64,000 nucleotides of DNA, from the IMG/VR virus record IMGVR_UViG_3300025168_000033, positions 32,001 to 96,000 of that record; one strand, written 5' to 3'. Shown piece after piece: positions 9,208-59,397 of this stretch. Source of the stretch: a virus. Made by a program: the position numbers and the translations under genes. The notes under the pieces are model-generated. The model made no database searches, was not told the DNA's origin, and saw nothing but the letters and a program-made list of their open reading frames with translations. The number at the start of each line of letters is the position of its first letter. Position 1 is the stretch's first letter.

Positions 9208-9208
9208 G

Positions 9209-9580: not shown

Positions 9581-10242
9581 ATTGTATATTGTGCTTTTGG
9601 TAGATTTTTTTTAGCAAATGTAATCCAGGTTTTAAGTACCTTATTTCTTTCAGTTTTAGTCATTAATTTTTGATCGATAAAATAATCAAGATATTCATTA
9701 AATACATCATTTAACGGTCGCTTTTCTGTTTTTGCTTGACGATACATTCCGTTTGCCATTGCTGGAACTTCATCCTTTAATAGAAAGTATTTATATAGAT
9801 TTCCTTTATCTCCGCTTATTTTATTTCTAATAATCGATCCAGTTATTTTAACCTTACTTGGACGTCTATTTTCACCGCCTTGAGTTAAATGTTCTATTTC
9901 ATGCCTAGCTGCATCCTGTAAAACTGCATTTAATTTTTGATAGCTTTGCGGTTCTTTAGCCGGATCCAAAGTAACAATAAATTCTATACCATTTACTGAT
10001 GGATAAGCACCAGCATCAACAATAACTCCTCGAGAATTTGATACCGCTTCACGTTTTATAAATAATTGTGCGTCATCAATAAATACCTTATCATTAAATT
10101 CACCTAAATCAAATTGTAACATTTCATGCTCTCCTTTAGGACTTGTTAATTTGATTATTGGCCAAATAGCATCTACTATTTCACCGGCAAGTTTATCATA
10201 ACTTCCTTCATTTAAGAATTGATTGTAATTTTTATATCTCAT
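9577..10242 (-). CDS. tagged zincin-like metallopeptidase
   Basis: MRYKNYNQFLNE; HEIEH zinc motif plus downstream YF...DEVPA glutamate. Confidence 0.6.
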   Translation of the reverse strand: MRYKNYNQFLNEGSYDKLAGEIVDAIWPIIKLTSPKGEHEMLQFDLGEFNDKVFIDDAQLFIKREAVSNSRGVIVDAGAYPSVNGIEFIVTLDPAKEPQSYQKLNAVLQDAARHEIEHLTQGGENRRPSKVKITGSIIRNKISGDKGNLYKYFLLKDEVPAMANGMYRQAKTEKRPLNDVFNEYLDYFIDQKLMTKTERNKVLKTWITFAKKNLPKAQYTI

Positions 10243-10246
10243 TTAA

Positions 10247-12797: not shown

Positions 12798-12838
12798 AGA
12801 TATACTTTTATTTTATATATCTACGCCTATGAATGATG

Positions 12839-25897: not shown

Positions 25898-27736
25898 TTA
25901 AATTTTGTTTGTTTTGAATCGTTTTGCTAATCCTTCAGTAACTGCATCCATATAAGAACTTGTAACTTTAACTTCGTTTATCGATTCAGAATTTGCAATT
26001 GCAGATTCATTAATCGGTTGAATTATTTCAGATCTCAAATCTCTTGTCGACCAAAAATGATCGATTTGATATTGTGATTCTAAAACACTAACAGAAGCTT
26101 GTAATTTAATTTCTTCTTGTTTGCTTTCACTTAAAGAATCATAAGACTCTTTATATTTAGCTGGGATATTTTCCAACCAATTTAAAACTTTAGGTTCGGG
26201 TGTTGTTGCTGATTCCCATATTCTTTCAACATCTCTAGTTCCGAAGTATTTGTTATTTTTAAATGCAAGTATCAAGTCACCTTGAGAGCTTTCATTTAAT
26301 TTTGCAAATTCACTTCTCTTAGATTCCGTTACAAAATGTAGGAAATGCAAGTCCTTATCTTCAGTTACTGCTTTTTGCTTCTTAGCAGATTCAAGTAAAG
26401 TATTTATCTTAGTACTGATATCATTCTTAAAGTTATCATTACTTTCTATAATTAAATTTTCTTTAGGTTCCGATTGCTTACTTATTCTACCATTACCTTC
26501 ATTAATTAATTTTGCACCGTTAAGTTCAGCAAAATTTTCATTAATATCGTTAATAGAATGTTCGGTATATGAACCTAGAGTTTCTAGATTTTCTTTAATA
26601 TATTCAGTAAAATTAGCAACATGTTCCATGTTCTCAACAATATAATCGTTATGAGAAATAAGAGTATCTACTGATTCATTAATTGTAGTTTGATATTCAA
26701 ATCTTGAATTAACTTCTTCACTAATGTGTTTAGAATATTCAATTGAATTATCAACTGATTCAGCAACCATTTTACTATATTCGATTGAATTATCAAGGTT
26801 TTCAGCCAATGATTTACTATATTCAATTCCTTGATCGGTCTTAAGAGCAACCAATTCACTATAATCTTTAACTGATTCAAGACCTTCAACAATATAATCA
26901 TTATGTGCAATTAGGTTGTCTGTATTTTCTTCAACCTTATTGATTTTTGAATTCATTGAATTTACTTCCTTAGCAATAGTTTCAACCCACTCTACAATTT
27001 GTGATTGTTCCTTTGTATTATTAGAAGGTATATCAGATTCGTTTATAGATTTGATTGATTCCTGGATCTTATTGAATTGTTCAGTGATATATTTTGAATA
27101 TTTATCGAACTGATCCATTGAGATGAATGATTCACCTTTAGTTTCGTTTATTGCAACTTCTGGTGCGTCAACTTGAGTTAAACCGTTATTTGTGTTATCC
27201 ATTTCAAATATTTGTATTGTATCGTCGTTTTGTAAGCCAAATGATTCATTGACTCTGTTTAATTGTGCATTTTCAAATCCTGGATCTGCAACCAAATCAT
27301 AAGTAAATAATCTTTTAACTTTTACATGATTATTTGATTCAACAACACCAGCTGCTCTAGATGAAATATGTATTGGAACTCCTGCATCAACTAATGCCTT
27401 TGCTTGTTTTCCAGCATCAGTATCAAGTAGCTTAATTCTACCTCTTACTTGTTTTGAAGATTTATCGTAAGATATTTCTTCTATAACATGTGATACATTT
27501 TTTAATGATACTTCGAATTGTTTTGGATGATCCAGTTCTCCTAGAATTTTTCTATCTTTAACTTTTTTAGCTAATTCTTCCACATGAGGAACAAATTCAG
27601 CTTCATCGTAAATTCGATTGTTTTTATTTTTTGTGCCTATTTCCGAAAAAATTCCTTCCAGTATATAATCGCCATTAGCGGTTTTCTGGAATTCTGCCTC
27701 AGAAACTGATCTTTCAAGAATCAGTAAGTTTTTCAT
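25898..27736 (-). CDS. gp21: prohead protease (gp21) fused to scaffold/core (gp22-like); start likely MKNLLILE at 27736
   Basis: LEGIF, NKNNRIY, LGELDHP, VSH.I, ISSRAAG, YDLVADPGF; long helical repeat C-terminus; late promoter at about 27769-27779. Confidence 0.88.
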   Translation of the reverse strand: MKNLLILERSVSEAEFQKTANGDYILEGIFSEIGTKNKNNRIYDEAEFVPHVEELAKKVKDRKILGELDHPKQFEVSLKNVSHVIEEISYDKSSKQVRGRIKLLDTDAGKQAKALVDAGVPIHISSRAAGVVESNNHVKVKRLFTYDLVADPGFENAQLNRVNESFGLQNDDTIQIFEMDNTNNGLTQVDAPEVAINETKGESFISMDQFDKYSKYITEQFNKIQESIKSINESDIPSNNTKEQSQIVEWVETIAKEVNSMNSKINKVEENTDNLIAHNDYIVEGLESVKDYSELVALKTDQGIEYSKSLAENLDNSIEYSKMVAESVDNSIEYSKHISEEVNSRFEYQTTINESVDTLISHNDYIVENMEHVANFTEYIKENLETLGSYTEHSINDINENFAELNGAKLINEGNGRISKQSEPKENLIIESNDNFKNDISTKINTLLESAKKQKAVTEDKDLHFLHFVTESKRSEFAKLNESSQGDLILAFKNNKYFGTRDVERIWESATTPEPKVLNWLENIPAKYKESYDSLSESKQEEIKLQASVSVLESQYQIDHFWSTRDLRSEIIQPINESAIANSESINEVKVTSSYMDAVTEGLAKRFKTNKI

Positions 27737-27819
27737 ATTTGTAGGTTTATTTTTAGCTTGGCTATTTGTTATATATATCAAGTTCACATTTACAAATGTG
27801 GTATCATTTTATAATACTT

Positions 27820-29418
27820 TTAAAAACCATCGTCATCCGATGTTAATTTTGCTTTCTCTGCCATTTCTTTCTCCTCTCTCTCTTTTAATTTAGCATTTAA
27901 TTTCAAATCATCCGCGGATAATCCAAGATATTTTCTAACTAAGAATTCAGATGAAAAGAATTTTGATTCATTCATATCAGCATCAGTATCAACTAATCCG
28001 TCTTTCATTGTTTGAATAAAATTGATTTCTTTCTCTAATACTTCCATTTCCTGCATCTTAATAAACATATTATTCTTCTGATATACTATACCTATTTGCT
28101 GTTTAAAATTATCATCATTGGCTAATTCTGGAAAGTCTAAGGCCATTTGTTGCCATAAAGGTTTTACAAGTATTTCTTGGAATTGTGTTCTCATACGATC
28201 AATAAAACGACCAAATTTTAACTCATCTCTAGTAGCACCTTCAGCCTGCATTTCCCATGATGGCGGCGATTCCTGATCAAATCTAGATAAAGGAATCTTA
28301 GTAACTTTATGAAATTCTTCTCTAAAATATCTAATTGCATCCGTATCACTTAAATCAGGACCATCATTTGCAAGTGTTTCAATTTCTGGTTGACCTGCAT
28401 CATTAGATGGTAACCAGTATTCCTTATTGAAAGGCATCATAGGTTTTCCATTTACCTGCAATTCACCAGATTCTACATCAAAATCCATTACTTCACGATA
28501 AGATTGCATTAGTACTCCTAATGATTGTTTTGCTCTAGTTTTTGATTTACCTCCTACTGGAATTATAAATTTAGTTTTAAATGATGAATTTACAACAGAC
28601 CATATAATTCTGGAATGTTCCATGATTCGTAAGATATTAAATGTTCTTACTAATCGTTCTACATAACTTACACGTCCAGGTGAATTAATTTGAGAATAAG
28701 AAAGATAAATTACTTGAGAATCATATAGTTCTCTTTGTTTTCTTACGTCACCTTTAAATTGAGTCCACATTTTCTTACCATCACTGTCTAGACCAGGCTC
28801 AATTGATGAGGGGTCTATTTCTTTGAATCCAATGATGTTTCTCATGTTCTTATCATAAATGATTTCAAACGCAAGATATCCATCAATCAACCATTTTCTA
28901 AAAAAGTTCCATGCAGAAATATCGTTATTGAATCCAAAATATTGATAGATTTTTTTGAAATTAGTTTGTACTGCATCAGAGATTTTCTTGTTAACATCAA
29001 CGGTAATTAATTCATCATCAAATATTTTTGGATATGCAAAGAAATTGGTTGCATCATATACAATAGCTTCATCCGCAAGTACATCCAATACATCTTCAAT
29101 TTTATCCTGAACAGAAAAGCGTCTTAAGTCTTCTCTTTTCTTTACATAGTTTCTATCATAAATAGAAATATTTTTACGAAGATTTATATCTGCCATTGAA
29201 AGATTAGCAAACATTCGATATTCATCATATTCGCCACCCATAAGGTTTGCCTGATCATATCGCCAACCATATTCATCTTCAGTAATACCGATAGATCTGG
29301 AATTTCTTAATACCATATCGTCATACTTCATTCCAAATGAACTAAGCTTCTTAATGAATTTTGTTACTGGATTTTTACTTTCCAAATAACTACCATTCCT
29401 ATTTACAAATCCTGACAT
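27820..29418 (-). CDS. gp20: portal protein
   Basis: FRKWLIDG, SY.ER....N.LRIME....I, YWLP, EIETL, KIPLSRF, RDELKF.RFI.RMR.QF. Confidence 0.92.
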   Translation of the reverse strand: MSGFVNRNGSYLESKNPVTKFIKKLSSFGMKYDDMVLRNSRSIGITEDEYGWRYDQANLMGGEYDEYRMFANLSMADINLRKNISIYDRNYVKKREDLRRFSVQDKIEDVLDVLADEAIVYDATNFFAYPKIFDDELITVDVNKKISDAVQTNFKKIYQYFGFNNDISAWNFFRKWLIDGYLAFEIIYDKNMRNIIGFKEIDPSSIEPGLDSDGKKMWTQFKGDVRKQRELYDSQVIYLSYSQINSPGRVSYVERLVRTFNILRIMEHSRIIWSVVNSSFKTKFIIPVGGKSKTRAKQSLGVLMQSYREVMDFDVESGELQVNGKPMMPFNKEYWLPSNDAGQPEIETLANDGPDLSDTDAIRYFREEFHKVTKIPLSRFDQESPPSWEMQAEGATRDELKFGRFIDRMRTQFQEILVKPLWQQMALDFPELANDDNFKQQIGIVYQKNNMFIKMQEMEVLEKEINFIQTMKDGLVDTDADMNESKFFSSEFLVRKYLGLSADDLKLNAKLKEREEKEMAEKAKLTSDDDGF

Positions 29419-29420
29419 TA

Positions 29421-30014
29421 TTATCTTGTTTTATTTATATATTCAATAAATAATTTGTCTCTTTCGGCTTCTCCGAGCTTGACAAAATTAGGGTTATTAA
29501 TTAACATTGCGCTTGCCCAAACATCTATATTATTTGAAAAAACGTATGAATTACTTATTCTTTTATTTATGTATTTTCTTGTTGCAAATCCAATACCATA
29601 TTGTTTATATGTCGCCATAAATGATTTAGGTGAAAATTTATTATATGACTGATCTCTTGCTGGGGTGTTTCTTTTGCTGTTATAAGCACTTCCATATCGT
29701 GTCCAGAATGCATCTATAAATTGATACTTTATTTTTTCTGGAAAAAAGTTTAAATTAACACCAATATCCATAAAACCTTCAGCTGACATTAATTCATCAA
29801 TCTTTATTATGAGTGGGTTAGTATTCCAATATGCTAATTTATCTCGAGTCTTTGGGTCATAATAATTAAACGAATATAATCTACCATATTGCATACGACC
29901 ATTAGTTGATCCAATTATTTTACCTCTCGCACCGTCGCCTTTAGCTTTAGATGCCCAACCAGAAGCATCAAATTTTGAGCCTTTAAGATCGTTAATTTTT
30001 CTAGCCATTTCCAT
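29421..30014 (-). CDS. gp2: DNA end protector-like protein
   Basis: GRLYSFNYYDPKT.DKL.YW...PL, GVNLNF.P, RKY. Confidence 0.7.
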   Translation of the reverse strand: MEMARKINDLKGSKFDASGWASKAKGDGARGKIIGSTNGRMQYGRLYSFNYYDPKTRDKLAYWNTNPLIIKIDELMSAEGFMDIGVNLNFFPEKIKYQFIDAFWTRYGSAYNSKRNTPARDQSYNKFSPKSFMATYKQYGIGFATRKYINKRISNSYVFSNNIDVWASAMLINNPNFVKLGEAERDKLFIEYINKTR

Positions 30015-31599: not shown

Positions 31600-31968
31600 T
31601 CAAATTGAATAGATGCCATCACCATTAGAATTACTCAATGATATAGTTCCTTTATATTTCTTTGGATGTAATTTATGCCAGCCTTTTGCATATCCGTTCA
31701 TACACATTGATGTAAAATATGAGAATGCATTTGTAGTTTTTTCTGGCTTAAAACTTCTCCAATATTTCATTAAATCTAAAATAGCAAATGATAAGCAATC
31801 TTCTTGATCCTGTGGATTAGCATATTTTAATTTTCTTTGCGCTCGTTCGGCTAACATTGTTAACATTTTAACTGCTGTTCGAGTTAATTCATCCTGCTCT
31901 TTTGATAAAACAATTTGATCATATAAATCTCTATTGTTTAAATAATTCTTTGATTTTCTTCGTGCCAT
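31600..31968 (-). CDS. gp55: late transcription sigma factor (short gp55-like)
   Basis: NYLNNRDL, A......KY......ED....A......Y...F.PEK..NAFSYFT. Confidence 0.8.
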   Translation of the reverse strand: MARRKSKNYLNNRDLYDQIVLSKEQDELTRTAVKMLTMLAERAQRKLKYANPQDQEDCLSFAILDLMKYWRSFKPEKTTNAFSYFTSMCMNGYAKGWHKLHPKKYKGTISLSNSNGDGIYSI

Positions 31969-46935: not shown

Positions 46936-48345
46936 TTACTTGTTTTTAAGTTGTTCTTTTAATTTTACTAATTCAATTTCTAAAAATAAATGTCGTTTCT
47001 TAAGTGTTTTTCTTTGACCATATAATTCACCTAGCACCTGTTTTAATATAGAATCTCCTTCATTTTTAAATACTGCACCAGTGGATGACACAATTAAAGA
47101 TTTATCTTTTCGTTTTTCTTCAATTTCATTTTGATCGCTTAATTTTTCAACAAATACTTCAGGAGATATATTTATTTGGCGCATTACGGAAGGATATAGT
47201 GAAGCAAAATCAAAGCATGCCACTGCATCATAAAGACCAGGTACTGGTTGCTTTACATAAGCACCTTCATAAGCACCTGTTACTTTAGATGTATATTCAT
47301 CCGCAATAACCATATTATTTTGATAAAACTTTTTAAACATTAATGCTTCAGTAAGATTTACTGCAGAACTCGCTTTATAGATAGTTAGATTATTTAATGC
47401 CGCTACAGAAAGAATTGTATTAACAGTCTTTAGTTTTCTATGAATCAATGTTACTAATCCTGCATCAGCAGCATTATAAGCAACATATTTTAAATAGTCA
47501 TTTTCATACATATCCTGTATCGATCCTTGATATTTTACTTTATTAATACCAAGAACCTGTCGGCCTGCAGTATCTAATGAATGATTTTCTTTTGGTGAAA
47601 CAGTCCTATCGTATGACTTATAAATTTCCATGTAATCTATCATTCCTAGATGAATAGGCAGATCTCCGCGATATGATAATTCATTTACTGGTGATGCAAT
47701 TGCTGGATCGATTCCAAGATTTCTAGCTCGTTTAGTTAAATAGGCCCAGTCAAATCTAAACCAGTTCCAACCTGTTACAAGTGCAAATTTAGGAAGCATC
47801 TTTGAAAAGAATGTATATAACATATCAAATTCAGTTTCAAAGCAAATATATTTAAATTTAAATGTAAGGCCTAATTTAGCAAAATGTTCATCAATCATAA
47901 CTTGAACTCGTGATTGATCCGCTTGACTCATTGGTTTCCAACCTAATACAATAGCTTGTAAATCATCAGTTGTTACAGCAATAGTAGTAACACGTTCTTT
48001 AGCTATTTCAGTATTCGGGAATCCATCAATTACTTCGGTTTCAATATCAATAGAACTCATCTTAGGAAAATTGACAGCCGTAATTACATCTTTATCTTCT
48101 TTAGGAAGGTTTTCAATAATTTCATAGATATCAAATTTAGATAATTTACCTTTGACTGGCCTTACTTTCTTAACTGATTTACCATCCCAGTTTTTAAATT
48201 CATCAGATTTATTTGGATCTGTATCTGCACATACTTTCCAGGATTTGAAATTAGAAATATCGAATTTTTTAATTTGCTTATTTCCTTTAGCATCAAAAAA
48301 TGAAATATTCAATGCGCCATATTGTTTTTGAATATCTAATATCAT
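46936..48345 (-). CDS. gp43: family B DNA polymerase, N-terminal subunit with 3'-5' exonuclease (split gp43)
   Basis: DIETE, TGWN..FD, SLD, YN..D, YEGAYV..P, DFASLYPS, NISPE; ends in the fingers helix. Confidence 0.92.
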   Translation of the reverse strand: MILDIQKQYGALNISFFDAKGNKQIKKFDISNFKSWKVCADTDPNKSDEFKNWDGKSVKKVRPVKGKLSKFDIYEIIENLPKEDKDVITAVNFPKMSSIDIETEVIDGFPNTEIAKERVTTIAVTTDDLQAIVLGWKPMSQADQSRVQVMIDEHFAKLGLTFKFKYICFETEFDMLYTFFSKMLPKFALVTGWNWFRFDWAYLTKRARNLGIDPAIASPVNELSYRGDLPIHLGMIDYMEIYKSYDRTVSPKENHSLDTAGRQVLGINKVKYQGSIQDMYENDYLKYVAYNAADAGLVTLIHRKLKTVNTILSVAALNNLTIYKASSAVNLTEALMFKKFYQNNMVIADEYTSKVTGAYEGAYVKQPVPGLYDAVACFDFASLYPSVMRQINISPEVFVEKLSDQNEIEEKRKDKSLIVSSTGAVFKNEGDSILKQVLGELYGQRKTLKKRHLFLEIELVKLKEQLKNK

Positions 48346-48719: not shown

Positions 48720-49358
48720 TTAATCAATACCCATTACGTTATTAAAACCTTGCTGTTTCAAAGCTTTTATTCCGTTATCTTGATGTCTTTTATTTTCACC
48801 TTCAACTTCGTAATATCCGCCATTTGCATCAACATGAGCTTTAATTTTTTTAGATGCAAAGTATTTTTCAATATATAATAATTGTTGAGACCTATTAAAA
48901 TCTCTAAATTCATTATGATCGAATTCCATTGATTCATTTACGAATCTTGAGAATTTCATAAATGCTGATTCATCTACTTCATCCTCGTCTTCATCATCAA
49001 TATCGCCATTTAAGCTATGAATTTTATCACCACTTCCGTTAGGTAATCCACCGTCGGCTCCAGGCATTGAAGTAGGACCCATTCCATTTACATTTCCTGG
49101 AGTTACTTCTTCTATCAATTGATCATTATCAAATTTTATGGCTGAAGTTGTATTATAATCACTAATTCTTGATTTAATACCATAAAGATCCATCATCATT
49201 TTAACAACAGTAGAACCTTTCTTTTTATCTTTCAATTGAAAGTAAGTTACTTTATCATTTGATTGAGATATTATTTGACTCACATATTGACTCAACTCTT
49301 TAGAAATATCTAATGCTGAATCACCTGATAATTGTCCTTTAAAGTTTGATTCGTTCAT
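48720..49358 (-). CDS. putative internal head polyprotein with internal tag and capsid-like N-arm motif
   Basis: MNE|S start, LIEE|VTPGNVNGMG...GSGDK, internal FMKFSRFVNE. Confidence 0.55.
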   Translation of the reverse strand: MNESNFKGQLSGDSALDISKELSQYVSQIISQSNDKVTYFQLKDKKKGSTVVKMMMDLYGIKSRISDYNTTSAIKFDNDQLIEEVTPGNVNGMGPTSMPGADGGLPNGSGDKIHSLNGDIDDEDEDEVDESAFMKFSRFVNESMEFDHNEFRDFNRSQQLLYIEKYFASKKIKAHVDANGGYYEVEGENKRHQDNGIKALKQQGFNNVMGID

Positions 49359-49364: not shown

Positions 49365-50102
49365 TTATTTTTTATAAGGAGCTCTAACATCGATTTTACC
49401 GCCACTTAATTCTTTTGCAACTTTATCAACCTGTTCTGGTTCAATCTTTGGCATATCCGCTCTTGGTGGTGCACCTTCTGGTGGTCCAACTCTTTGAATA
49501 GCAGCTAAGGCTTTTGCAATTGTAGCTTCACCTCTTTTTTCAAACCAAGCAATAGCTTTTTCTTTATTATAGAATTTTTTATCCATTCCTTCACCGTCAT
49601 AGATTGCAGCTTTAACATTATCCATAGTTGATGTGAAAATATTAGCATCTCCAGCAACAGCTAGACCTCTTTTATTTCCTAATGCATCTCCGGCAGCTCT
49701 AAGAACTGGAACTAAATCACCAATATTTAATTCAGATTGTACTCCTGTTACTTTTGCAGAAGGATTGTTGAACATTGTAGCAGCCCATCTATGATGACCA
49801 TCTAGAATTCTGTTATCTTGTGAAATAACAGCACCAAGATCTCCACCTTCAACTCCTACAATAGCCATACTTAATGCCTTAGCTAAATAAACTGCATCCT
49901 GTGATGGCTTTAATGATTTAGCTGGAATAGAAGCTTTTTTAGTTACTACTACATCGTCTTGAGTATCTCCATCTTTTTTACCAGCTTTAAAAAATTCCTT
50001 GTCATTTTTATTTCCAGGATTTGGAAATTTTGATGGATCGATTTCTTTAGTTTTTAAGCTTTCATTAATAACGAATTGCTCAAATGATATTAATTTTTTC
50101 AT
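49365..50102 (-). CDS. tagged ParB/sulfiredoxin-like protein
   Basis: MKKLISFEQFVINE; LKPSQ, VISQDNRILDGHHRWAA. Confidence 0.7.
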   Translation of the reverse strand: MKKLISFEQFVINESLKTKEIDPSKFPNPGNKNDKEFFKAGKKDGDTQDDVVVTKKASIPAKSLKPSQDAVYLAKALSMAIVGVEGGDLGAVISQDNRILDGHHRWAATMFNNPSAKVTGVQSELNIGDLVPVLRAAGDALGNKRGLAVAGDANIFTSTMDNVKAAIYDGEGMDKKFYNKEKAIAWFEKRGEATIAKALAAIQRVGPPEGAPPRADMPKIEPEQVDKVAKELSGGKIDVRAPYKK

Positions 50103-50144
50103 GTTTAAAAGTATTTATTTTATTTATCTTGTTCTATATGTAGT

Positions 50145-50459
50145 TTAGTCATAAACTACTGCACCATCATCACCATAAGTAAATACTGCGGTTTCACCTT
50201 CTAGATCTAAAGCAATTACATCTTCATCAGGCTCTAAAAAATCTCCGGCAGTTCCAGAATCGTCATATTTTTTAAGGTCTTTCATCTTGCCTTTAGCAAT
50301 AACATTATAGACATCTCCATGATAATCCTCAGCTTTATCACCAACCTTTACTTTATTAAAAGGCTTTATTTTTTTAGCTTCATTAACTTCATCGTTAGTT
50401 GATTCTTTTAAATTATAAGATTCATTTACAAAATCTTCAAATGATTCAATATTTCTCAT
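50145..50459 (-). CDS. tagged small SH3/KOW-like protein
   Basis: MRNIESFEDFVNE..LKE..VNE|A; KVKVGD. Confidence 0.6.
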   Translation of the reverse strand: MRNIESFEDFVNESYNLKESTNDEVNEAKKIKPFNKVKVGDKAEDYHGDVYNVIAKGKMKDLKKYDDSGTAGDFLEPDEDVIALDLEGETAVFTYGDDGAVVYD

Positions 50460-50487
50460 ATTTATTTATTTATTTGTTTTATTTATC

Positions 50488-52713
50488 TTAAAGTGATCTA
50501 TATTTCTTTTGAATAGCCTGCCAAACTTTTTCTGGTGTAGTATTTCTACCGGTAGCAAATTTATTAACGCTAGTAGAACCACGTTTATTAGGTGAAGTTA
50601 TTGATAATTGAATGAAAGGTTTGTCACCAATTTCGTTATATTGGAATGCCCATATTAATGCTAATTCATCAACTTTAACAGTGAATTCTACTGCACCATA
50701 AAAGTTTTCTTTTACATCTTCAACCTTCATATTTCCTAAATATTTGTCACCCTTTAATAAAAATTCCGTAAAAGATTTATACCAGTCGTTCGATCTTTTT
50801 TCAAATTCTGACAACGGCCATGCTTCATTAACAGATTCAAATTTCAGATTTTGAGTAACTTCTGGTGGAAGATCGTTATATTCAGAATCAATATATTTTT
50901 CTACATTATCTGGGTCTTTAACTGCTGTTAATAGTGCTGATTCTCTTTCGTCATCACTTAATTCATCCCATTTAATTGATTTTTGAGATTTCTCGTTTAA
51001 AAATTCGTCTAGTGATTCCGCAACTAATTTCATGTTTGGCTTTGATTTTGTCTGATTAATATTATCAAATATTCGTTGTCCAAATTTAGAAAGTTGATAT
51101 GTTTTTTCACCGCTTTCATTTTTTGATACTTTAAAGTAATTCATGTTTGATTTGAACCATCGAGTTTGATTAACTGATTTTCCTAAATCTTCTTCAACAC
51201 GAATTAACATATCCTTGATTTGTTCTTCGGTCATTATATTGTTACCAATATATTTGATAATTGAATTACGTAAGGGTGCTTTTTCATTTATACGTCTAGC
51301 ATCATAAATTCCATATTTACGTTTAATAGTATGTTTAGCTTCATTAACACTAACTATCTTAGCTTGTTTTATACGTGATTTATTTACTAATTCTTTTTCT
51401 TTCGTTTCAGCTTCTTCTTTAGTTTTAAATATTCCAGATTTAGCATTTTCCCCATCTTGGGTTTTATATTCAACTCTAAAACCTTCCCCTGATTGATTAA
51501 CTGATTCAGTTATAGAATTCAACATTTCCTGTTTACTAAATACTAAGCTTTTTGGATGACTTGAAAGTTCAAATGTAGTACTATACATAGCACTAAGTTT
51601 AGCACCAATTTCTTTACCATTTTTATCTGTTACGATATATTCATTGAAAGCGTTTGACTTTCTACCATAATCAGTAACAGTATAAACATTAGTATCTGTA
51701 TTAAATTTAGATCCGATTTCTATTTTATTGAAAATTTTAGTACCTAGCATACTGATTTTACTTCCAGAAATAGTTCCCTCATTTAAGTCATAAGATTCAC
51801 TAAATAATCTTCTACCTGTTTTATCTTCTAGATGTAATTTTGCTTTAGGATATTTCTCTTGCATTACATTAAATGTAGCAGGAGCAACATCTGGAGTAGA
51901 AACTGGTTCTTGATGAATTACTTTGCCATCTTGTATAACTACAATTACTGCTGGATAGCTTCCTTGAGTTGCAGCTTTATATACTTTACGTCTAGATGCT
52001 TCAGTAACTAATGATTCATCCATTACCATATATTTAGATGGAACTATAAATTCTCCTTGTCCACTTTTTACAATCATTCCTTTATTACCACGAGTCATCT
52101 TAATAACTTTATAAACATCGTCATAATCTAAAGAAACACCTTCCTTATCTAGAATTTCTTCAACAAAATGTGGAGCTCCCAGAACTACAAAATCACCTTT
52201 CTTGAATTTAGATTCGTTAATTTCTTTATTTTCCTCATTTGCTAAAGGATTAGGAATAGTAATTGATTTACCTTGATAAAATCTCTTTTTTAGTTTATCA
52301 ATAGTATCATTCTTCTTTAAATAGTAAGGATGCTCATATTGATCTGAATCATCTCCTACAATAAGAATAATATGTTCTCCTTCATCAGAACTATATATTT
52401 TAAAGTCTGAACCTAATACTTTACCTTTTATATTCTTTTTAGCCTCATTTACAGATTCGGTATATAATATTTCAGAATCAAAATTATATTTAGGACCATC
52501 TTGTTCAGCATCTTGTACATCTATAGTTCCGTTTTTATTAATATTGATAACTCTGAATTCAGTTCCAACTGAGGCACCTTTATGCATTTCTTCATCTCTA
52601 TCATCGTCACCAGTTTGATATATTACAACAATATCACCGACTTTTGATCGTTCGCCATTGTAATATTTTGCAGATGCCTCATTCAAGAAGTCTTCAAATT
52701 TTTCTATTGCCAT
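50488..52713 (-). CDS. tagged multidomain polyprotein
   Basis: MAIEKFEDFLNE; about 8 internal (V/I/L)(N/T)E junctions separating small domains. Confidence 0.65.
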   Translation of the reverse strand: MAIEKFEDFLNEASAKYYNGERSKVGDIVVIYQTGDDDRDEEMHKGASVGTEFRVININKNGTIDVQDAEQDGPKYNFDSEILYTESVNEAKKNIKGKVLGSDFKIYSSDEGEHIILIVGDDSDQYEHPYYLKKNDTIDKLKKRFYQGKSITIPNPLANEENKEINESKFKKGDFVVLGAPHFVEEILDKEGVSLDYDDVYKVIKMTRGNKGMIVKSGQGEFIVPSKYMVMDESLVTEASRRKVYKAATQGSYPAVIVVIQDGKVIHQEPVSTPDVAPATFNVMQEKYPKAKLHLEDKTGRRLFSESYDLNEGTISGSKISMLGTKIFNKIEIGSKFNTDTNVYTVTDYGRKSNAFNEYIVTDKNGKEIGAKLSAMYSTTFELSSHPKSLVFSKQEMLNSITESVNQSGEGFRVEYKTQDGENAKSGIFKTKEEAETKEKELVNKSRIKQAKIVSVNEAKHTIKRKYGIYDARRINEKAPLRNSIIKYIGNNIMTEEQIKDMLIRVEEDLGKSVNQTRWFKSNMNYFKVSKNESGEKTYQLSKFGQRIFDNINQTKSKPNMKLVAESLDEFLNEKSQKSIKWDELSDDERESALLTAVKDPDNVEKYIDSEYNDLPPEVTQNLKFESVNEAWPLSEFEKRSNDWYKSFTEFLLKGDKYLGNMKVEDVKENFYGAVEFTVKVDELALIWAFQYNEIGDKPFIQLSITSPNKRGSTSVNKFATGRNTTPEKVWQAIQKKYRSL

Positions 52714-52730
52714 AATATAATTTTCTTTTA

Positions 52731-53585
52731 TTATTTATCTTCAGATAGTTCGTCTTTTAATTGAGGATAATATTGATGTGTAGTTGTATCAGTCATGGAT
52801 TTGAATGATTTTATATCATCTTCTATTAAAGCTTTACGAACTTTAGATGCACTAATATTATCATCAGTACGTTTTATTTCATGAGCTTTAAATTCTGGAT
52901 CTACATTTAAATCCAATCTATAAGAATCTTTTTGAATTTGACCGCTATAGGCTTTTAATCTATCTGATCCAGTACCCCACAAAATAGGCTCATATTCAGG
53001 ACGTAATTCATTATAAATTGTATCTATACCCGCTCTTGAAATAGTTCTGAATCCTTCTATAAATTTATGTTTCTTTGCAAGATCGTTAAATATTTGCTCT
53101 ATTAAACCTTCACTAAACGGTGTTTTTTCCTTGTTAATTTTCTTTGCACGCACCATAAGTACTATTACAGGATATCCATTTTCTTCGGACAAAGATTTAA
53201 GAACTTTTATATGTCCTAGCGTCGGAGGTTGAAAACGTCCCGCAATAATATTAACTTTTTTATTGCCAGGTTCTGTTGAATCTACCTTTAAAGCTTCATT
53301 TAAAGATTCAGATATTTTTCCGGTTTTAGATACTTTATAATATGTAGGTATTTTATCCCAATCTTTACCGTTAGTTTTTATGCCTGAATACATTTGATTT
53401 TTATCACTTTTCCATGCACCACCAGTTCCATCTTTATATTTGATCATGGTTGGTGTTTCTTCATAAAACCACCAATCGCCATCAGAATGCTGTGCTAAAT
53501 ATCTTGCCCAATCTGGGATATTTTTAAATTTAGGAAATTGTTTTCCTTCATTTATGAAATCAAAAAATCTTTTGAATCTATTCAT
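52731..53585 (-). CDS. tagged HxGH-type (cytidylyltransferase-like) nucleotidyltransferase with an N-terminal extra domain
   Basis: MNRFKRFFDFINE; ISESLNE| then GRFQPPTLGH, GSDR, ISASKVR. Confidence 0.75.
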   Translation of the reverse strand: MNRFKRFFDFINEGKQFPKFKNIPDWARYLAQHSDGDWWFYEETPTMIKYKDGTGGAWKSDKNQMYSGIKTNGKDWDKIPTYYKVSKTGKISESLNEALKVDSTEPGNKKVNIIAGRFQPPTLGHIKVLKSLSEENGYPVIVLMVRAKKINKEKTPFSEGLIEQIFNDLAKKHKFIEGFRTISRAGIDTIYNELRPEYEPILWGTGSDRLKAYSGQIQKDSYRLDLNVDPEFKAHEIKRTDDNISASKVRKALIEDDIKSFKSMTDTTTHQYYPQLKDELSEDK

Positions 53586-53586
53586 G

Positions 53587-54816
53587 TTAATTGTTTAATT
53601 TTAGAAATTCAGAAAATGATAAAGTAACATCAGATTCATTTGTATTTTTAGCTATTGTAACATTATCAATATTTGTAATGATTTGATTGATGTCATTAAT
53701 CATAGCCTTATCTATAACCTGTGTTGCTCGTTTACGTAATTTTTTAAATGTTCCAATAAGAACTTTAAAAGTATCATGATAAAGCGGCTTAGACTTTATT
53801 AATTTTAATGCTTCTTTATTATCTATAAATTTATAGTTAACTTTGAATTCAGGTATTTTTGCAAAATCTGGAGTATCAAATTCAAATCCATCTATGACAG
53901 ATTTCTTTTTAGATACAAAGTCTACAAATATCTGTGACATTAAATCGATATATCTATCGTCTTTTGTATTACCCGATATTGAATAAGAATCAACACCATT
54001 AATTCTCATAAATTCAACCATTTGCATAATAGCAATTGCCGTTGAATCCGGTGTTTGTCTTGGCTTTTGTCTGTCTTTTGATTTTAATCTAGCATTTGCA
54101 GTAAAAAGTGGATCGACCATTTTAGCACTAAATTCTTCTTTAGGACCGCTTATGAATTTAAAAACAATTCCTTCAATAGGCTTGTCTAGATCATTTTGTA
54201 ATGCAGTTTTTTTAAGCTTTGGATTAATTATAGATAGAATATATCTTACAAATGAAGTAGTTTCAAATTTCTTAACTAGATCTTCAAATGGTGTTTGAAT
54301 AAATTCCAATAGGTCTTCTCTTTGTTGTGGTTTTAATTTGCCACTAAAATATACAGGCGGTTCATCAACATTAATTATATTAGCCCATTTACTAAGAACC
54401 TTTGGATCGGTAATAACTTTCTTGGTTCTTCCACCTGAATCAACAATTTTTATATCTGTAAGAACTAAAGAATTTTTAGGCATTTTATCATATAACGTAT
54501 TGACTGGCTTCTTGTTTACAAAATATTCAAATCCAAATCTAAAATCTGTTGGCAATAATTTCTTTTTAGAATCTGCAATAGCCTCAATAAATTCAATAGG
54601 CCTTTCAAATACAGACATCATAGTTCTTTCAACCTTACTAATAGGATTTTTAGGATCTCTTTTATAGAATAAAATTGATTGATCCGATTGCTTTTGAAAT
54701 TCAAATCTAGTACCATCCAATTTCTCAGATACTAATACATAATTATTTAAAAGTGACTTAACAAATTCTTCTCCTTTTTTAGAAGATATATCAAATAAGT
54801 GTGGTAATCCGGCCAT
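53587..54816 (-). CDS. ATP-dependent RNA ligase-like (covalent nucleotidyltransferase) protein
   Basis: motif I SEKLDG, FGFEY, IEGIVF, AKMVD; C-terminal TNE..LSFSEFL. Confidence 0.7.
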   Translation of the reverse strand: MAGLPHLFDISSKKGEEFVKSLLNNYVLVSEKLDGTRFEFQKQSDQSILFYKRDPKNPISKVERTMMSVFERPIEFIEAIADSKKKLLPTDFRFGFEYFVNKKPVNTLYDKMPKNSLVLTDIKIVDSGGRTKKVITDPKVLSKWANIINVDEPPVYFSGKLKPQQREDLLEFIQTPFEDLVKKFETTSFVRYILSIINPKLKKTALQNDLDKPIEGIVFKFISGPKEEFSAKMVDPLFTANARLKSKDRQKPRQTPDSTAIAIMQMVEFMRINGVDSYSISGNTKDDRYIDLMSQIFVDFVSKKKSVIDGFEFDTPDFAKIPEFKVNYKFIDNKEALKLIKSKPLYHDTFKVLIGTFKKLRKRATQVIDKAMINDINQIITNIDNVTIAKNTNESDVTLSFSEFLKLNN

Positions 54817-54835
54817 TGTTTTTGTTTATGTTGTA

Positions 54836-55990
54836 TTATTTTATTTTCATTCCAATCATCATATTCTTATCGGAAATACCAATAACAATACCATCTCTTT
54901 CATATTCAGTTCCGTCAGCATAAGCACCAATTGGCTTAACATATTTAAATCCAAGATTTTTAATAAGTTTTGAAGTAATATCAAATCCTAGACTGGATTC
55001 AAATCCAGTAACTTTACCAAATCCAGTAACAAATCCTGTTTTAGCTGCAATTATACCTTTAGGATTTTTTTGAAATGCTTCAGGAGCAACAGTCTTAAAT
55101 TCTTTTACAAATGCTTTCCATATTGGATCACTAGATAATGTTTTTCTGTCCCAAGTAAAATCACGAATCATTGAAAAACTATCCGATTCAAATACTTCTA
55201 TTCCATTATCACCATAGAATTTTTTAATTATATCGTAAAGATCGTCCTTTGCATCTTGATTATTTTTTATAAAAACTTTTAACGGTCTTATTAGATTTAA
55301 AAAGTTTTTTCTACTAAGCTTCATTTCTTCATCTATAAATTCAGACTCATTAATAGATTTAAGATTTAATTCAATTAAAGTATTAACACCATCTCTATGA
55401 ACCTCAGAAAATTTGACATCACCAAAATCAGATAAAATATCTTTTAAAATTGTTGTATCTAATTCTATTATCTCATCTTTTAAATGTTCATAAGCAGAAG
55501 TATAAAATTGTAATTTGCCACTTCTTAATCGTGCTATTAATATTCCAATATTTTCAACTGCTAGCCAGGCATGCCTATTTCTTTTGCCTCTTCGACTTAC
55601 TTTACGAGCCATTAATTCTTCTATTAAAAGCGCTTGAAATCTAGAACTAGCCTGATCAACACCACTATAAGTAATATTATCTGTTACAAAAAAATCATAT
55701 AGTGTATCAGCTTTAAAAGTTTCATTTAATGGAAATGACCATTGTCTTGATGACATTGGTGCATAAGGAGCTAATTTCTTCCATGCCTTTTCAGCATCTT
55801 TACGTTTACCAGCTTTATCCAGATCCTGTATCATTTGATTAGTTGTTTCCCAATCAGCAATACCAGCCTTATAAGCTCTCGGATCATCACTCATCATATA
55901 AGTCCAATCCATAGATTTTAATTGTGCCTCAAGATCCTTGATAGTAACTCTTTCATTTAAGAAATCGTCAAACTTTTTAAATTGTCCCAT
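54836..55990 (-). CDS. tagged multidomain polyprotein
   Basis: MGQFKKFDDFLNE; DWTYMMSDD domain; PLNE, SINE, VFE junctions. Confidence 0.6.
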   Translation of the reverse strand: MGQFKKFDDFLNERVTIKDLEAQLKSMDWTYMMSDDPRAYKAGIADWETTNQMIQDLDKAGKRKDAEKAWKKLAPYAPMSSRQWSFPLNETFKADTLYDFFVTDNITYSGVDQASSRFQALLIEELMARKVSRRGKRNRHAWLAVENIGILIARLRSGKLQFYTSAYEHLKDEIIELDTTILKDILSDFGDVKFSEVHRDGVNTLIELNLKSINESEFIDEEMKLSRKNFLNLIRPLKVFIKNNQDAKDDLYDIIKKFYGDNGIEVFESDSFSMIRDFTWDRKTLSSDPIWKAFVKEFKTVAPEAFQKNPKGIIAAKTGFVTGFGKVTGFESSLGFDITSKLIKNLGFKYVKPIGAYADGTEYERDGIVIGISDKNMMIGMKIK

Positions 55991-56004
55991 TGTAATTTAT
56001 AATT

Positions 56005-56943
56005 TTAATTCCATCCGCCAGAATAGTAATCACTACCACCTGAAACTTTTGGTATTTTGAATGTTTTTCCGTTTATTGTAAATGTAGCTGTGTAAAAATA
56101 TGTAGTAGAAAATGAAGAACTAACAACTGCGCTATGCTCACTTCCTAGCATCTTGATTTCTTTTACATCTATTTTATCCCACTTAACATCATCACCTTTT
56201 AGTATAATTTCTTTAATGTATGCAAATGGTTTAGCCATTGGAGGTTGAACCCATGCCAATTTACCAAGATTAGTTCCGTTTCCACCAGGTCTATCTGCAA
56301 CTTTATACATGTCTGTCTTATATTCTATTAGTTCTCTGATATTGAAATCCGTCCACCAACTTCTTGCAAATTGAGCCATCTTTGGAATTCCAAATTTTAA
56401 TATATGAGCCTTCTCAACATCAGTAAAAGTTTTAATTATATCATAAAGCTTGTATTTTTTGTTAAGTTCACGTCTATCTTTACTTGCAAGACCAGACCAT
56501 AATGCATATATAATCTCATCATCGTCATTATCTTCAATTAGCTTAGTATATGAAGCTGCTAATCTAACTGCTTCTTCCTTGCTTCTAGGATCTGCATTAT
56601 TACGATGTGCATCTTTATAATCATCACCAAAGTTTCTGAATACCTCTGTAAATTCCTTTATCATCTTTGAATTTGGTGTTCTACCTGTTCCAGCTGCAGC
56701 TAATATATCATTTTTATCGTTTTCACCGAGTTCAGCAAATTTAGGATCTTTAACAAGCTTTGCTAATGTTATATTTGTATCAATTCCAGCATTTTTTAAT
56801 GACCAAGCAAGATCTCCTTGTTTACTTTCAACATCACCTTTACTATAAGAATTCTTTATTGTATAAACTTTCTTTACAACTTTCATATAATCGCCGTAAT
56901 AAGCTTCGTTTAAAAATTGTTCATAGGATTGTATCTTCTTCAT
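56005..56943 (-). CDS. tagged putative internal head protein
   Basis: MKKIQSYEQFLNE. Confidence 0.65.
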   Translation of the reverse strand: MKKIQSYEQFLNEAYYGDYMKVVKKVYTIKNSYSKGDVESKQGDLAWSLKNAGIDTNITLAKLVKDPKFAELGENDKNDILAAAGTGRTPNSKMIKEFTEVFRNFGDDYKDAHRNNADPRSKEEAVRLAASYTKLIEDNDDDEIIYALWSGLASKDRRELNKKYKLYDIIKTFTDVEKAHILKFGIPKMAQFARSWWTDFNIRELIEYKTDMYKVADRPGGNGTNLGKLAWVQPPMAKPFAYIKEIILKGDDVKWDKIDVKEIKMLGSEHSAVVSSSFSTTYFYTATFTINGKTFKIPKVSGGSDYYSGGWN

Positions 56944-56952
56944 AATATGTAT

Positions 56953-57384
56953 TTATTTGTTTAGGTCTTTATTAAAATCAATGTAACTATCACGATCTGT
57001 AAGTTTTTTCATTCCTTGAACCATATCTCTAGTTAATGATTCTTTATTATCGTATGCAATAACTAAAAAGAAGTCTGCGTTGTTACCACTGTCATTTTGT
57101 CTATCTGAAGATTCCCATCCCGGACCCCATTTCACCCAAGATCCATTTACTGATTCAAGATTTTTCACATCCTTAGTATAAAGATCACCAGCAGCATTGG
57201 TTGTTAACAAATATGCAAAGTCTTCTTTATATTTGAAGTTTTTGTCTTTTGGTTCATAAACATCGAATCCGAGTTTCTTAAGACCTTTTTTGATATTAGG
57301 CATATCACGTATAATGTAATGTGGTTCATATCTAGAAGTATTAGCTTCGTTTAAAAATTGTTCATATGATTGTATCTTCTTCAT
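56953..57384 (-). CDS. tagged putative internal head protein
   Basis: MKKIQSYEQFLNE; late promoter at 57403-57411. Confidence 0.65.
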   Translation of the reverse strand: MKKIQSYEQFLNEANTSRYEPHYIIRDMPNIKKGLKKLGFDVYEPKDKNFKYKEDFAYLLTTNAAGDLYTKDVKNLESVNGSWVKWGPGWESSDRQNDSGNNADFFLVIAYDNKESLTRDMVQGMKKLTDRDSYIDFNKDLNK

Positions 57385-57453
57385 AATCGTACTTTTGTTT
57401 TTTTATATATCTTTGCACTATCTATAGTTAAATATAAACAATTTTTTTGACAT

Positions 57454-57486
57454 AAAAAAATCTGGAAGTAACGAATTTCCAGATTT
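57454..57486 (-). terminator. intrinsic terminator after NTase gene
   Basis: AAATCTGGAA...TTCCAGATTTTTTT on minus strand. Confidence 0.7.
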
Positions 57487-57525
57487 AAATGGTCGTAACC
57501 ATCCCGGTCCTAAAATCGGTTTATT

Positions 57526-58455
57526 TTATGCCATTTCACTTGGATAAGGAAATCCAGCCTTGACAATTCCTTCTTTATATACTTTTATTATTTCACTTAA
57601 TTTGTGTTTGTGAATAAATTTAGATGAATTCATCCAGTTCCAAATAGATTCGAATGAATTTAAATCATTCACCTTTCCTTCGGGTCCTAAAACAAATTTA
57701 GCAATATCATCAATATTTTTTGTAATAGCTTTGTCTGCACCTTTAATTGTAGATGCATTTTTCTTTCTTCCCCTTTTACCGTCAAATGATTTAGTTTGTA
57801 TTTTTAAACCGTCATGTGCAGTAAGAGTATATTTTTGAAAGTCTTTTACTAATCCTTCATATTCACCGCCAAATTCTTTCTTATAGATATTTGGTTCACC
57901 ATCAAAATCGATATTTTGAATAATATCATAAATAAGTTTAGTTCTATAAACTCCTTTATATTTTGATTCTTCTTTTGTAAAGTCTGGTGAATGATAAATG
58001 AATGTTGCTAATTTAATATCATCAACAACCATAAAATCTATTTGAACAAATTTATCTGTAATCTTGCCTTTTTCATCATACTGTGGAAATTTAATGTTTG
58101 TAACACCTAATCCTTTAGTAAGATTTGTTTCATATTTAGGAAATGTTTTTGTTAGTTGATTATAAACTTCCGTAACAACATCGCCAAATGATAATTTATT
58201 TGCAGCACCATAAACTAATCCGTTTATTGAAATATCAATATCACCAGATGTAGATCCAGCTTTCTTTTTAAATGTACTTCCTAATACACCATATTCATCT
58301 TTATTTAAACCAAGAACTGGCTTGATAAATGTCTTTAATAAAACGTCAAATGTCGGTTTTTGATATTCCGCTGGAATAGGATGAGTGCCATTAAATGCAT
58401 TACCTGATTCCAGTAATCTTTCTTCAACAAAAGCTTCAAATAATTTAAATTCCAT
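57526..58455 (-). CDS. tagged Pol-beta-superfamily nucleotidyltransferase
   Basis: MEFKLFEAFVEERLLE|SGNAF; LGS..KK....SGDIDI; VQIDFM (third Asp). Confidence 0.7.
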   Translation of the reverse strand: MEFKLFEAFVEERLLESGNAFNGTHPIPAEYQKPTFDVLLKTFIKPVLGLNKDEYGVLGSTFKKKAGSTSGDIDISINGLVYGAANKLSFGDVVTEVYNQLTKTFPKYETNLTKGLGVTNIKFPQYDEKGKITDKFVQIDFMVVDDIKLATFIYHSPDFTKEESKYKGVYRTKLIYDIIQNIDFDGEPNIYKKEFGGEYEGLVKDFQKYTLTAHDGLKIQTKSFDGKRGRKKNASTIKGADKAITKNIDDIAKFVLGPEGKVNDLNSFESIWNWMNSSKFIHKHKLSEIIKVYKEGIVKAGFPYPSEMA

Positions 58456-58470: not shown

Positions 58471-58896
58471 TTAAGCTATTTTATACAATGCCTTATATAC
58501 TGTATTAATTTGCTTTTCTAATGTATTTAACTTTTTAGGATCCATTTTTTTAATAGATTCAGCAACCCAATACTGTGTACCTTCATGACCTAAAAGAGCA
58601 ACTAAGTCACCGAATGCTTTCATAGTCGAACCTGCATTAGCTTCATTTACTACATCATTAACCGATTCATAAACATCGATTTCTGGATTTTTTGATTTAA
58701 TTAATTTCTTTTCCGCCGAGTCAATAGCATCACTTAAATTATCCTGATATTCAGGATTAATAAATCCTTCCCAATCACCAGAATTTTGTAATTCAGTTAA
58801 TCCAACTATACAGGCTTCTATTTCCATCTCTTCTAATTTAATATTAGATGCTTTACCCTCAGTTAAAAAGTCTTTATATGCTTTTATATTTTTCAT
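58471..58896 (-). CDS. tagged putative internal head protein
   Basis: MKNIKAYKDFLTE; internal VYESVNDVVNE|A. Confidence 0.6.
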   Translation of the reverse strand: MKNIKAYKDFLTEGKASNIKLEEMEIEACIVGLTELQNSGDWEGFINPEYQDNLSDAIDSAEKKLIKSKNPEIDVYESVNDVVNEANAGSTMKAFGDLVALLGHEGTQYWVAESIKKMDPKKLNTLEKQINTVYKALYKIA

Positions 58897-59357: not shown

Positions 59358-59397
59358 TATAGTTCTTTGTTTTAATTTATTTATATATCCTTTTGTA

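Follow-up and report, generated by a model that had tools for sequence, protein, structure and literature searches.

A conserved trio of polymerase X-like, RNA-ligase-like and HIGH-superfamily enzymes among leader-tagged genes of a T4-like jumbo phage: a candidate capsid-borne RNA repair kit

Why should a large phage keep, within some 9 kb, the genes for several kinds of nucleotide-transfer enzyme, most of them preceded by a short leader resembling the sequence that targets proteins to the T4 capsid? This question is raised by a cluster at positions 49,365 to 58,455 of the window analysed here, a stretch of 64,000 nucleotides (positions 32,001 to 96,000) of the 108,411-base IMG/VR virus record IMGVR_UViG_3300025168_000033; coordinates below are those of the window unless another record is named. 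A preliminary description had seen in this cluster four tagged enzymes, a Pol-beta nucleotidyltransferase, a KxDG ligase-like protein, an HxGH nucleotidyltransferase and a ParB/Srx-like protein, and had proposed that they constitute one virion-delivered module. All four genes, with their motifs, are indeed there, on the minus strand. Sequence comparisons indicate that the first three form one conserved module, and we tentatively favour, with a probability of roughly 0.4, the reading that late capsid-cargo operons supply an injected kit that would fill and seal broken RNA, for example, tRNA.

The nucleotidyltransferase gene (57526..58455, minus strand) encodes a protein of 309 amino acids (aa) with the motifs G59-S60, then G71-D72-I73-D74, then D140. 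The homologue search yielded 80 clusters, and G59, S60, K63, G71, D72, D74, Q138 and D140 are invariant in 39 aligned homologues. In the AlphaFold (AF2) model (predicted local distance difference test, pLDDT, 92.4, the leader alone being disordered), the catalytic residues G59-S60, D72, D74 and D140 are found on strands 72-78 and 132-144. All significant PDB matches of this model in Foldseek are Pol beta or Pol lambda, and the top nine in VIA, an independent all-against-representatives structural alignment, are family X polymerases, namely, Pol beta, Thermus PolX, TdT, Leishmania Pol beta, African swine fever virus (ASFV) PolX, Pol lambda and Pol mu (Z 8.8-10.1, 160-199 residues aligned). These alignments span model residues 1-278, and the second subdomain, after the palm, matches the C-terminal subdomain of Pol beta and ASFV PolX, the latter being aligned over 160/176 residues (rmsd 3.2). 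Terminal uridylyltransferases, CCA-adding enzymes, MenT and the cGAS-like CD-NTases align over only about 100-124 residues, with Z of at most 8.2. The 8-kDa dRP-lyase and helix-hairpin-helix domains are absent, given that only about 290 residues follow the leader and the alignments begin at the palm; ASFV PolX likewise lacks both. The protein is thus predicted to comprise the palm and the next subdomain, as in a minimal PolX that lacks the 8-kDa domain, and we refer to it as PolX-like; the Pol-beta fold read from its motifs is borne out by the confident model, the family X matches and the invariant residues.

Sequence profiles are less telling. The PolX-like protein itself has no match in Pfam (PF14792, DNA_pol_B_palm, included), PHROG or NCBIfam; among its 39 relatives, NTP_transf_2 is matched in 10 and DNA_pol_B_palm weakly in six (best E 0.0019). 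Similar models occur in other phages, the best coming from Agrobacterium phage Atu_ph07. Membership in the RlaP family was rejected, PF10127 having no match at E <=10 in the 108-kb record and none among the 39 relatives. A cGAS/CD-NTase identity was set aside as well, these matches being lower and shorter (Z 6.4-7.7, about 105 residues) than those to family X (Z about 10, 160-199 residues). Single-sequence and profile searches of PDB sequences gave nothing useful for the PolX-like, ligase or ParB-like protein.

The ligase gene (53587..54816, minus strand) encodes a 409-aa protein with motifs I (EKLDG, including K32), III (GFEYF), IV (EGIVFK) and V (AKMVDP), all conserved in the family; the motif I lysine is replaced in two of 30 aligned members, by Met (P0115) and Asn (P0125), and two further rows are gapped there. 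Residues 1-245 form the adenylyltransferase domain, which is followed by a helical C-domain. With 24.4 bits, the protein falls just short of the cut-off of 27 for the Pfam family RNA_ligase (PF09414), to which several relatives are assigned in precomputed tables, one of them (L067) scoring 30.5 bits. The best Foldseek match of the AF2 model (pLDDT 86.8) is T4 Rnl2 (6.8e-8). In VIA, T4 Rnl2 (191 residues, rmsd 3.9) and Naegleria NgrRnl share a Z of 10.1, followed by REL1 (9.4) and by Rnl1 and Trl1 (9.2), whereas DNA ligases reach at most 8.2. The motifs and the Rnl2-like model uphold the ligase-type fold and predict an ATP-dependent RNA-ligase-type enzyme of the Rnl2/Rnl5 kind. The possibility that it is the replicative DNA ligase was rejected because a canonical DNA ligase is encoded elsewhere in all five complete relatives; in the 108-kb record itself, about 37% complete, LigA was not found, a weak negative. 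The uncultured huge phage record LR756500.1 (L001) encodes at 8001-9962 a HIGH-fused ligase domain without the catalytic Lys (ENLDG), preceded at 6704-7969 by a tagged 421-aa protein with intact KLDG, and locus L007 contains at 8734-10506, 0.8 kb downstream of the first, a second ligase-plus-HIGH paralogue of 590 aa with 32% identity to the window ligase.

The third gene (52731..53585, minus strand) starts with an ATG one base after the ligase stop, in a different frame. Its 284-aa product is composite, with a leader (residues 1-13), a small domain (14-97) ending in SLNE (94-97) and a HIGH-superfamily domain (98-284). The small domain is Trp-rich, matches phrog_20561 and phrog_1972, and is bounded by the leader and SLNE. 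The HIGH domain contains GRFQPPTLGH and ISASKVR; the HIGH-type motif and GRFQP are thus present as first described, but the first position of the presumed HxGH is T here (TLGH), H being found in most relatives. Invariant in the family are G116, R117, P120, G124, H125, G206, D208, R209, Y213, R239 and R250, the conserved blocks being GRFQPxxxGH, S-x-T-x-V-R and an invariant GxGxDRxxxY. The domain passes PF01467 (26.7 bits against a cut-off of 21) and TIGR00125 and matches PHROG cytidyltransferases down to 2.3e-14. Its best named matches are nicotinamide mononucleotide (NMN) adenylyltransferases, NMNATs (PDB 1f9a, E 0.039; models NF002243 and PRK05379), but the scores against the NMNAT equivalogs lie far below the cut-offs (NF002243, 22.4 against 127 bits; TIGR01527, 16.6 against 181 bits). 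By sequence, the protein is a HIGH nucleotidyltransferase, weakly NMNAT-like. Members of this superfamily use a phosphate monoester as acceptor for a nucleoside monophosphate (NMP), so that either NMN or a terminal phosphate on RNA is a conceivable substrate.

Are these genes neighbours by chance? An IMG/VR scan found 423 relatives; 80 loci were profile-searched, and the following counts are over 60 distinct loci. The ligase and HIGH domains are a single open reading frame (ORF) in 53 of the 60, as well as in LR756500.1, so the direct coupling of the two that had been noted in the window is supported. A PolX-like gene lies no more than 600 bp upstream of the ligase, on the same strand, in 49, and UvsW-like helicase and DNA polymerase genes flank the module at a fixed place in 56-57. 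In addition, HIGH is fused to the PolX-like enzyme in three protein clusters (P0008, P0047, P0064). The ligase homologues fall into 48 clusters, about 32 of them of 589-676 residues, 20 of these with PF01467; overall, relatives join up to three enzymes in proteins of up to 1122 aa, and the extra regions of the longer fusions (621-1122 aa) have no Pfam domain. Since dozens of relatives have three of the four genes fused or side by side, the clustering is not a matter of chance, and genomic context identifies the PolX-like enzyme, the ligase and the HIGH enzyme as one conserved module. Two tag-like motifs lie in the fusion linker: PSF[LM]DFKKNN, equivalent to the C-terminus of the window ligase, and FYSYNEFISALE, equivalent to the window HIGH leader and located exactly where the window HIGH gene starts. 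Given these matches, the ligase and HIGH genes of the window are a fusion split between the two linker motifs. A complex prediction for the ligase and HIGH domain with a PolX-like partner gave a score of 0.00, which counts neither way.

The pairing of HIGH with a PolX-like enzyme also occurs in a cultured phage, Flavobacterium phage immuto, in which gp089 is an untagged PolX-like protein whose start falls exactly on the predicted mature N-terminus. It is followed by gp088, a 907-aa protein annotated as NadR that combines a second Pol-beta region with a HIGH region (L088 5995-9628). Some marine relatives retain only a stub of 6-7 residues before the conserved EGG.

The fourth protein of the original set behaves differently. 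Its gene (49365..50102, minus strand; 245 aa) is absent within 10 kb of the ligase in all 80 related loci, so that the neighbourhood check retains the PolX-like, ligase and HIGH enzymes in the proposed four-enzyme module but removes the ParB-like protein. In other phages, the neighbours of the ParB-like gene are small and cargo-like, and tail or terminase genes are close by. The family comprises 458 homologue clusters, the best 120 of which are all at least 52% identical to the window protein, and every aligned member has a leader. We predict from these patterns a separate, independently conserved cargo protein. The motifs are LKPSQ (64-68) and, after 32 residues, DGHHRW (101-106); S67-Q68 and D101-W106 are invariant in 26 homologues. 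The protein matches phrog_2859 (2.7e-9), and a homologous stretch lies inside the 2129-aa F116p59 protein. ParB_N (PF02195) has no match at E <=1, and none of the 26 members matches any ParB Pfam family; language-model features in Atlas gave ParB_N, ParBc_2 and Parb-CE at 0.81-0.89, as leads only. The ParB/Srx assignment accordingly draws on the motifs, one PHROG match, the F116p59 stretch and the language-model leads and is confirmed by no profile, which leaves three of the four fold assignments of the preliminary description standing.

Some ParB-like homologues (P0133, P0155, P0184, P0190) run past the usual end via a second leader-like motif into a further domain; because this motif precedes the extra domain, tags apparently also mark internal junctions in this family. 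A 1096-aa phage protein in BFVD, A0A6J5TD12, named ParB/Sulfiredoxin, includes a region resembling the PolX-like model, and the ParB-like model resembles, in part, an 838-aa viral cluster that contains PF01467, two cases that hint at a link between the ParB-like protein and the trio in other phages.

If the trio is a module, where would it act? The leaders suggest an answer. The pattern [FYW][DENKQ][DEQAK][FW][LIV]x[DE] matches 22 ORFs in the 108-kb record, in 20 of the 22 at residues 6-7. The usual form is MKNLQSYDEFLNE, and its Y-x-x-F-[IL]-x-E spacing is the same as in the T4 capsid targeting sequence (CTS), MKTYQEFIAE (PMC8442874), in which residues 4 and 7 have been mapped as determinants of targeting, and 8 and 10 as determinants of processing (PMC9026906). 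The PolX-like leader (residues 1-16, FEAFVEE, then LLE, the body starting SGNAF) fits the pattern and is the most divergent; the HIGH and ParB-like leaders are looser and were both missed by it. The ligase has no N-terminal leader, and the LSFSEFLKLNN at its C-terminus represents a motif conserved in the family (consensus PSFxEFKK; PSF[LM]DFKKNN in fusion linkers) that is tag-like and, by its sequence, not the tag, because the LxE cleavage triplet is missing. Thus, of the initial proposal that all four enzymes are tagged, the ligase at its C-terminus, the part concerning the PolX-like, HIGH and ParB-like proteins stands, but that concerning the ligase does not. Triplets of the form [LIV]NE are twice as dense in tagged as in untagged proteins; none lies inside the bodies of the four enzymes, the triplets of these proteins being confined to leaders and domain junctions. 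Leaders also recur at internal domain junctions of fusion proteins. A 212-aa ORF just downstream of the ParB-like gene (48720-49358, minus strand) has no N-terminal leader and contains an internal FSRFVNE at residues 136-142.

The remainder of the record identifies the source, by its genes, as an uncultured T4-like jumbo phage. CheckV completeness is 37%, which implies a whole genome of probably about 290 kb; almost every gene lies on the minus strand, and the GC content is about 30%. The window encodes a T4-type Gp23, the major capsid protein (24193-25869), a gp21-family S77 prohead protease (Peptidase_S77, 25898-27787) and a T4-type portal (Portal_T4, 27820-29418), and further T4-type core genes encode a tail sheath, a terminase, a DNA end protector and a gp32-like protein. 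A 122-aa ORF (31600-31968, minus strand) is homologous in tblastn to late sigma factors of cyanophages, Sinorhizobium phages and Xanthomonas phages, its relatives being so named in annotated phages; a Pfam search of this gp55-like ORF gave no match. The public records closest to it come from uncultured huge phages; one of these, LR756500.1 (462 kb), is syntenic around the region, and megablast of the 9-kb region against phage records found no match.

The tagged enzymes appear to be expressed along with these structural genes. The motif GATATATAA occurs 19 times on the coding strand of the window and never on the other, and sites of the form [GA]ATATATAA lie 17-41 nt 5' of the starts of the sheath, portal, Hc2-like and several tagged genes; examples of GATATATAA in the window are at 5758-5766, 12813-12821 and 29435-29443. 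GATATATAA is probably the late promoter of the phage, a variant of T4's TATAAATA. A [GA]ATATATAA scan located AATATATAA (59381..59389, minus strand) 32 nt 5' of a gene for a 147-aa protein, and here likely starts a first operon that continues with a 141-aa tagged protein (58471..58896, minus strand; leader MKNIKAYKDFLTE; no Pfam match) and the PolX-like enzyme. It is closed by an intrinsic-terminator-like hairpin (57453..57484, minus strand) with an 8-bp stem, ATCTGGAA/TTCCAGAT, then T7, which a consensus terminator scan missed, the stem being AT-rich, and which was found by reading the sequence. Beyond this hairpin, GATATATAA at 57403..57411 (minus strand), 27 nt 5' of the next gene, is the likely start of a second operon comprising genes for tagged proteins of 143 aa (56953..57384), 312 aa (56005..56943) and 384 aa (54836..55990), the ligase, the HIGH enzyme and a 741-aa tagged protein (50488..52713), all on the minus strand. 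Because late-type motifs precede both operons and a gp55-like sigma factor is encoded, the sequence points to late transcription of both together with the structural genes. Taken with the CTS-like leaders and the T4-type head genes including the S77 protease, this makes packaging and injection of the tagged enzymes plausible.

Under the reading that we favour, the tagged proteins would be made late, the F/Y-x-x-F-[LIV]-x-E leaders would dock them to the prohead scaffolding core, the S77 prohead protease would remove the leaders by cutting after Glu, and the enzymes would be injected along with the DNA. In the new cell, the PolX-like enzyme would add the missing nucleotides at a break and the ligase would then seal the 3'-OH/5'-phosphate nick; the HIGH enzyme, physically tied to both others, may either transfer a nucleotide to a terminal phosphate or provide an adenylylated cofactor. 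RNA, such as tRNA, cut by host defence nucleases would be the most likely substrate, so that repair could act before any phage translation. Repair as such is suggested by analogy, the nearest structures of both the PolX-like protein and the ligase being enzymes that act on nicked or gapped duplexes. RNA is favoured as the substrate because the ligase domain is nearer to RNA ligases and the five complete relatives have a canonical DNA ligase elsewhere; we rank fill-and-seal RNA repair first and repair of DNA nicks or gaps second.

Several observations weigh against this scheme. A structural Z of about 10 is evidence for the fold, not for the substrate, and the family X similarity could equally indicate DNA. 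The PolX-like leader is degenerate, the ligase end is not the tag, and the leaderless homologues in immuto suggest a module independent of packaging. The module lies between the UvsW-like helicase and DNA polymerase genes of the window, away from the head genes. No end-healing kinase or phosphatase, KptA or tRNA gene was found in the 108-kb record, absences that are weak because the record is only about 37% complete, and PNK3P is absent from four complete relatives.

The alternative that we rank first, unlikely as we hold it to be, is that the proteins are not packaged, the leader having some other role or being a relic of gene shuffling in a cargo island, and that the trio works in the cytoplasm late in infection, where the untagged homologues of other phages must work. 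The leaderless gp089 and gp088 of immuto, the stubs of the marine relatives and the position beside replication genes are what one would expect if this were so. Against it, the leader agrees with the T4 CTS pattern at each of the four positions of mapped function, a protease of the matching family is encoded, leaders repeat at internal junctions of fusions, [LIV]NE sites avoid the enzyme bodies, and the promoter motifs are common to structural genes.

Ranking after it, and likewise improbable in our estimate, is action on DNA, in which the trio, injected or acting late, would fill gaps and seal nicks in the phage genome, much as ASFV Pol X does with its ligase, or bacterial LigD. The polymerase of LigD extends with a ribonucleotide, and a nick bearing a 3'-ribonucleotide is the preferred substrate of its ligase; Rnl2-type ligases prefer an RNA 3'-OH strand at a duplex nick, which we count for this alternative, together with the family X identity of the top nine structural matches (with near-complete coverage of ASFV PolX), the rank of DNA_pol_B_palm as the second commonest weak Pfam match among relatives, and the location of the module among UvsW-like helicase, gp32 and DNA polymerase genes in 56-57 of the 60 loci. 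Against it, the ligase domain has Z of 9.2-10.1 to RNA ligases and at most 8.2 to DNA ligases, and relatives already carry a canonical DNA ligase; moreover, the 8-kDa lyase and helix-hairpin-helix domains are absent, and the role of the HIGH domain is left unexplained.

A more ambitious form of RNA repair, which we regard as quite doubtful, would have the HIGH domain transfer an NMP to the terminal phosphate of broken RNA, for 5' pre-activation or for disposal of a 3'/2' phosphate, and would so provide a complete injected pathway, free of kinase and phosphatase, against tRNA-cutting defences. The weakest proposal, that HIGH is a genuine NMN adenylyltransferase in a cluster that restores NAD+ or disturbs nucleotide signalling against NAD-depleting or cyclic-nucleotide defences, is most improbable: the best sequence matches and the GRFQP-type motif lean that way and phage NAD+ synthesis genes are known (PMC7824862), but every NMNAT model is far below its cut-off, NAMPT was not found in the 108-kb record (a weak negative, given its incompleteness), HIGH is fused to the RNA ligase or the PolX-like enzyme and not to Nudix, kinase or NAMPT, and the nucleotidyltransferase is nearer to family X polymerases than to CD-NTases, which leaves, of the readings raised in the preliminary description, nucleotide-messenger chemistry without support and NAD+ restoration with sub-threshold NMNAT similarity only.

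The other genes of the cluster say less. In the window, the tagged 143-, 312- and 384-aa genes are an insertion between the PolX-like gene and the ligase. The 312-aa protein belongs to a small family of 30 homologue clusters with a conserved C-terminal SSSFSTTY...YYSGGW motif and, despite these homologues, has no family or structure match; the 384-aa protein has no usable match, Atlas included. The 741-aa protein, with eight [LIV]NE sites, several as ESVNEA, is probably a string of small modules cleavable by the prohead protease; it is counted here as a neighbour of the enzyme module. A 104-aa tagged protein (50145..50459, minus strand) precedes the ParB-like gene. The family B DNA polymerase ORF (46936-48345, minus strand) stops after 469 aa, having the exonuclease domain and the start of the polymerase domain, and LR756500.1 has a matching 472-aa polymerase ORF followed by a 647-aa repeat-rich ORF, so the gene seems, from these sequences, to be split in the lineage of the two phages. 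The sole AAA_33 match in the record was rejected as a candidate, being the P-loop of a 316-aa ORF (18596-19546) with an N-terminus resembling a clamp-loader subunit.

What would follow if the favoured reading were true? Defences that cut tRNA or mRNA block the making of any countermeasure, and a repair kit carried in the capsid would bypass this block. The idea of T4 internal proteins, which covers inhibitors and one ADP-ribosyltransferase, would then take in enzymes of nucleic-acid repair as well. The module is common, some of the 423 relatives lying on complete genomes of 348-434 kb, and two of its three enzymes lack a family model. The recurrent fusion of HIGH to an RNA ligase or PolX-like enzyme points to undescribed chemistry; in the literature searched, no paper deals with fusion of a cytidylyltransferase-type domain to an RNA ligase of phages. 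Both the ligase and the minimal PolX-like enzyme may serve as reagents, and immuto, being cultured, is a possible experimental system.

Compared with known systems, the locus appears to combine two familiar kinds, T4-type capsid cargo and repair pairs of a Pol-beta nucleotidyltransferase with an RNA ligase. As in the T4 internal proteins and Alt, the N-terminal leader is of about 10-13 residues with aromatics three apart, then [LIV]-x-E, genes of T4 type for Gp23, the portal and the S77 protease are present, and the cargo is varied and unrelated in sequence, enzymes such as Alt included. Unlike T4, with its handful of internal proteins, this phage has at least 22 tagged genes in 108 kb; its predicted cargo includes nucleic-acid enzymes, and tags stand also at internal junctions of fusion proteins. 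Polyvalent proteins and the DdrB-like ParB domains found in phages (Iyer et al. 2017, PMC5512222) resemble the predicted cargo as head-delivered enzyme sets acting early; the ParB-like protein shares a stretch with F116p59, and relatives of the trio fuse up to three enzymes, but the enzymes here are mostly separate genes, each with its own leader, and not one giant polypeptide.

On the enzymatic side, the ligase shares with T4 Rnl2, NgrRnl (Rnl5) and trypanosome REL1 the adenylyltransferase fold and motifs I, III, IV and V (Z 9.4-10.1 over 183-193 residues) and differs in scoring just below the Pfam RNA_ligase cut-off, in its helical C-domain and in its usual fusion to a HIGH nucleotidyltransferase. 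ASFV Pol X with DNA ligase, or eukaryotic Pol beta with its ligase, offers the same juxtaposition of a minimal palm-plus-thumb polymerase without the 8-kDa domain and a ligase that forms a covalent lysyl-AMP; here, however, the sequences are just 9-17% identical, the ligase belongs to the RNA-ligase type, the host is bacterial and no AP endonuclease is linked. The closest logic is that of the pairs of RNA ligase and RlaP (PF10127), in which the gene for a Pol-beta-superfamily nucleotidyltransferase also adjoins that for an ATP-dependent RNA ligase. For those pairs, addition of nucleotides followed by sealing has been proposed (PMC7824862), and, in vitro, RlaP extends damaged RNA 3' ends by one or two NMPs (bioRxiv 10.64898/2025.12.29.696909). 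The same add-then-seal order is predicted for the phage module, which differs from the RlaP pairs in having a nucleotidyltransferase that lacks a PF10127 match and is nearer to family X polymerases, no linked end-healing enzyme, a fused HIGH nucleotidyltransferase and putative capsid-targeting leaders.

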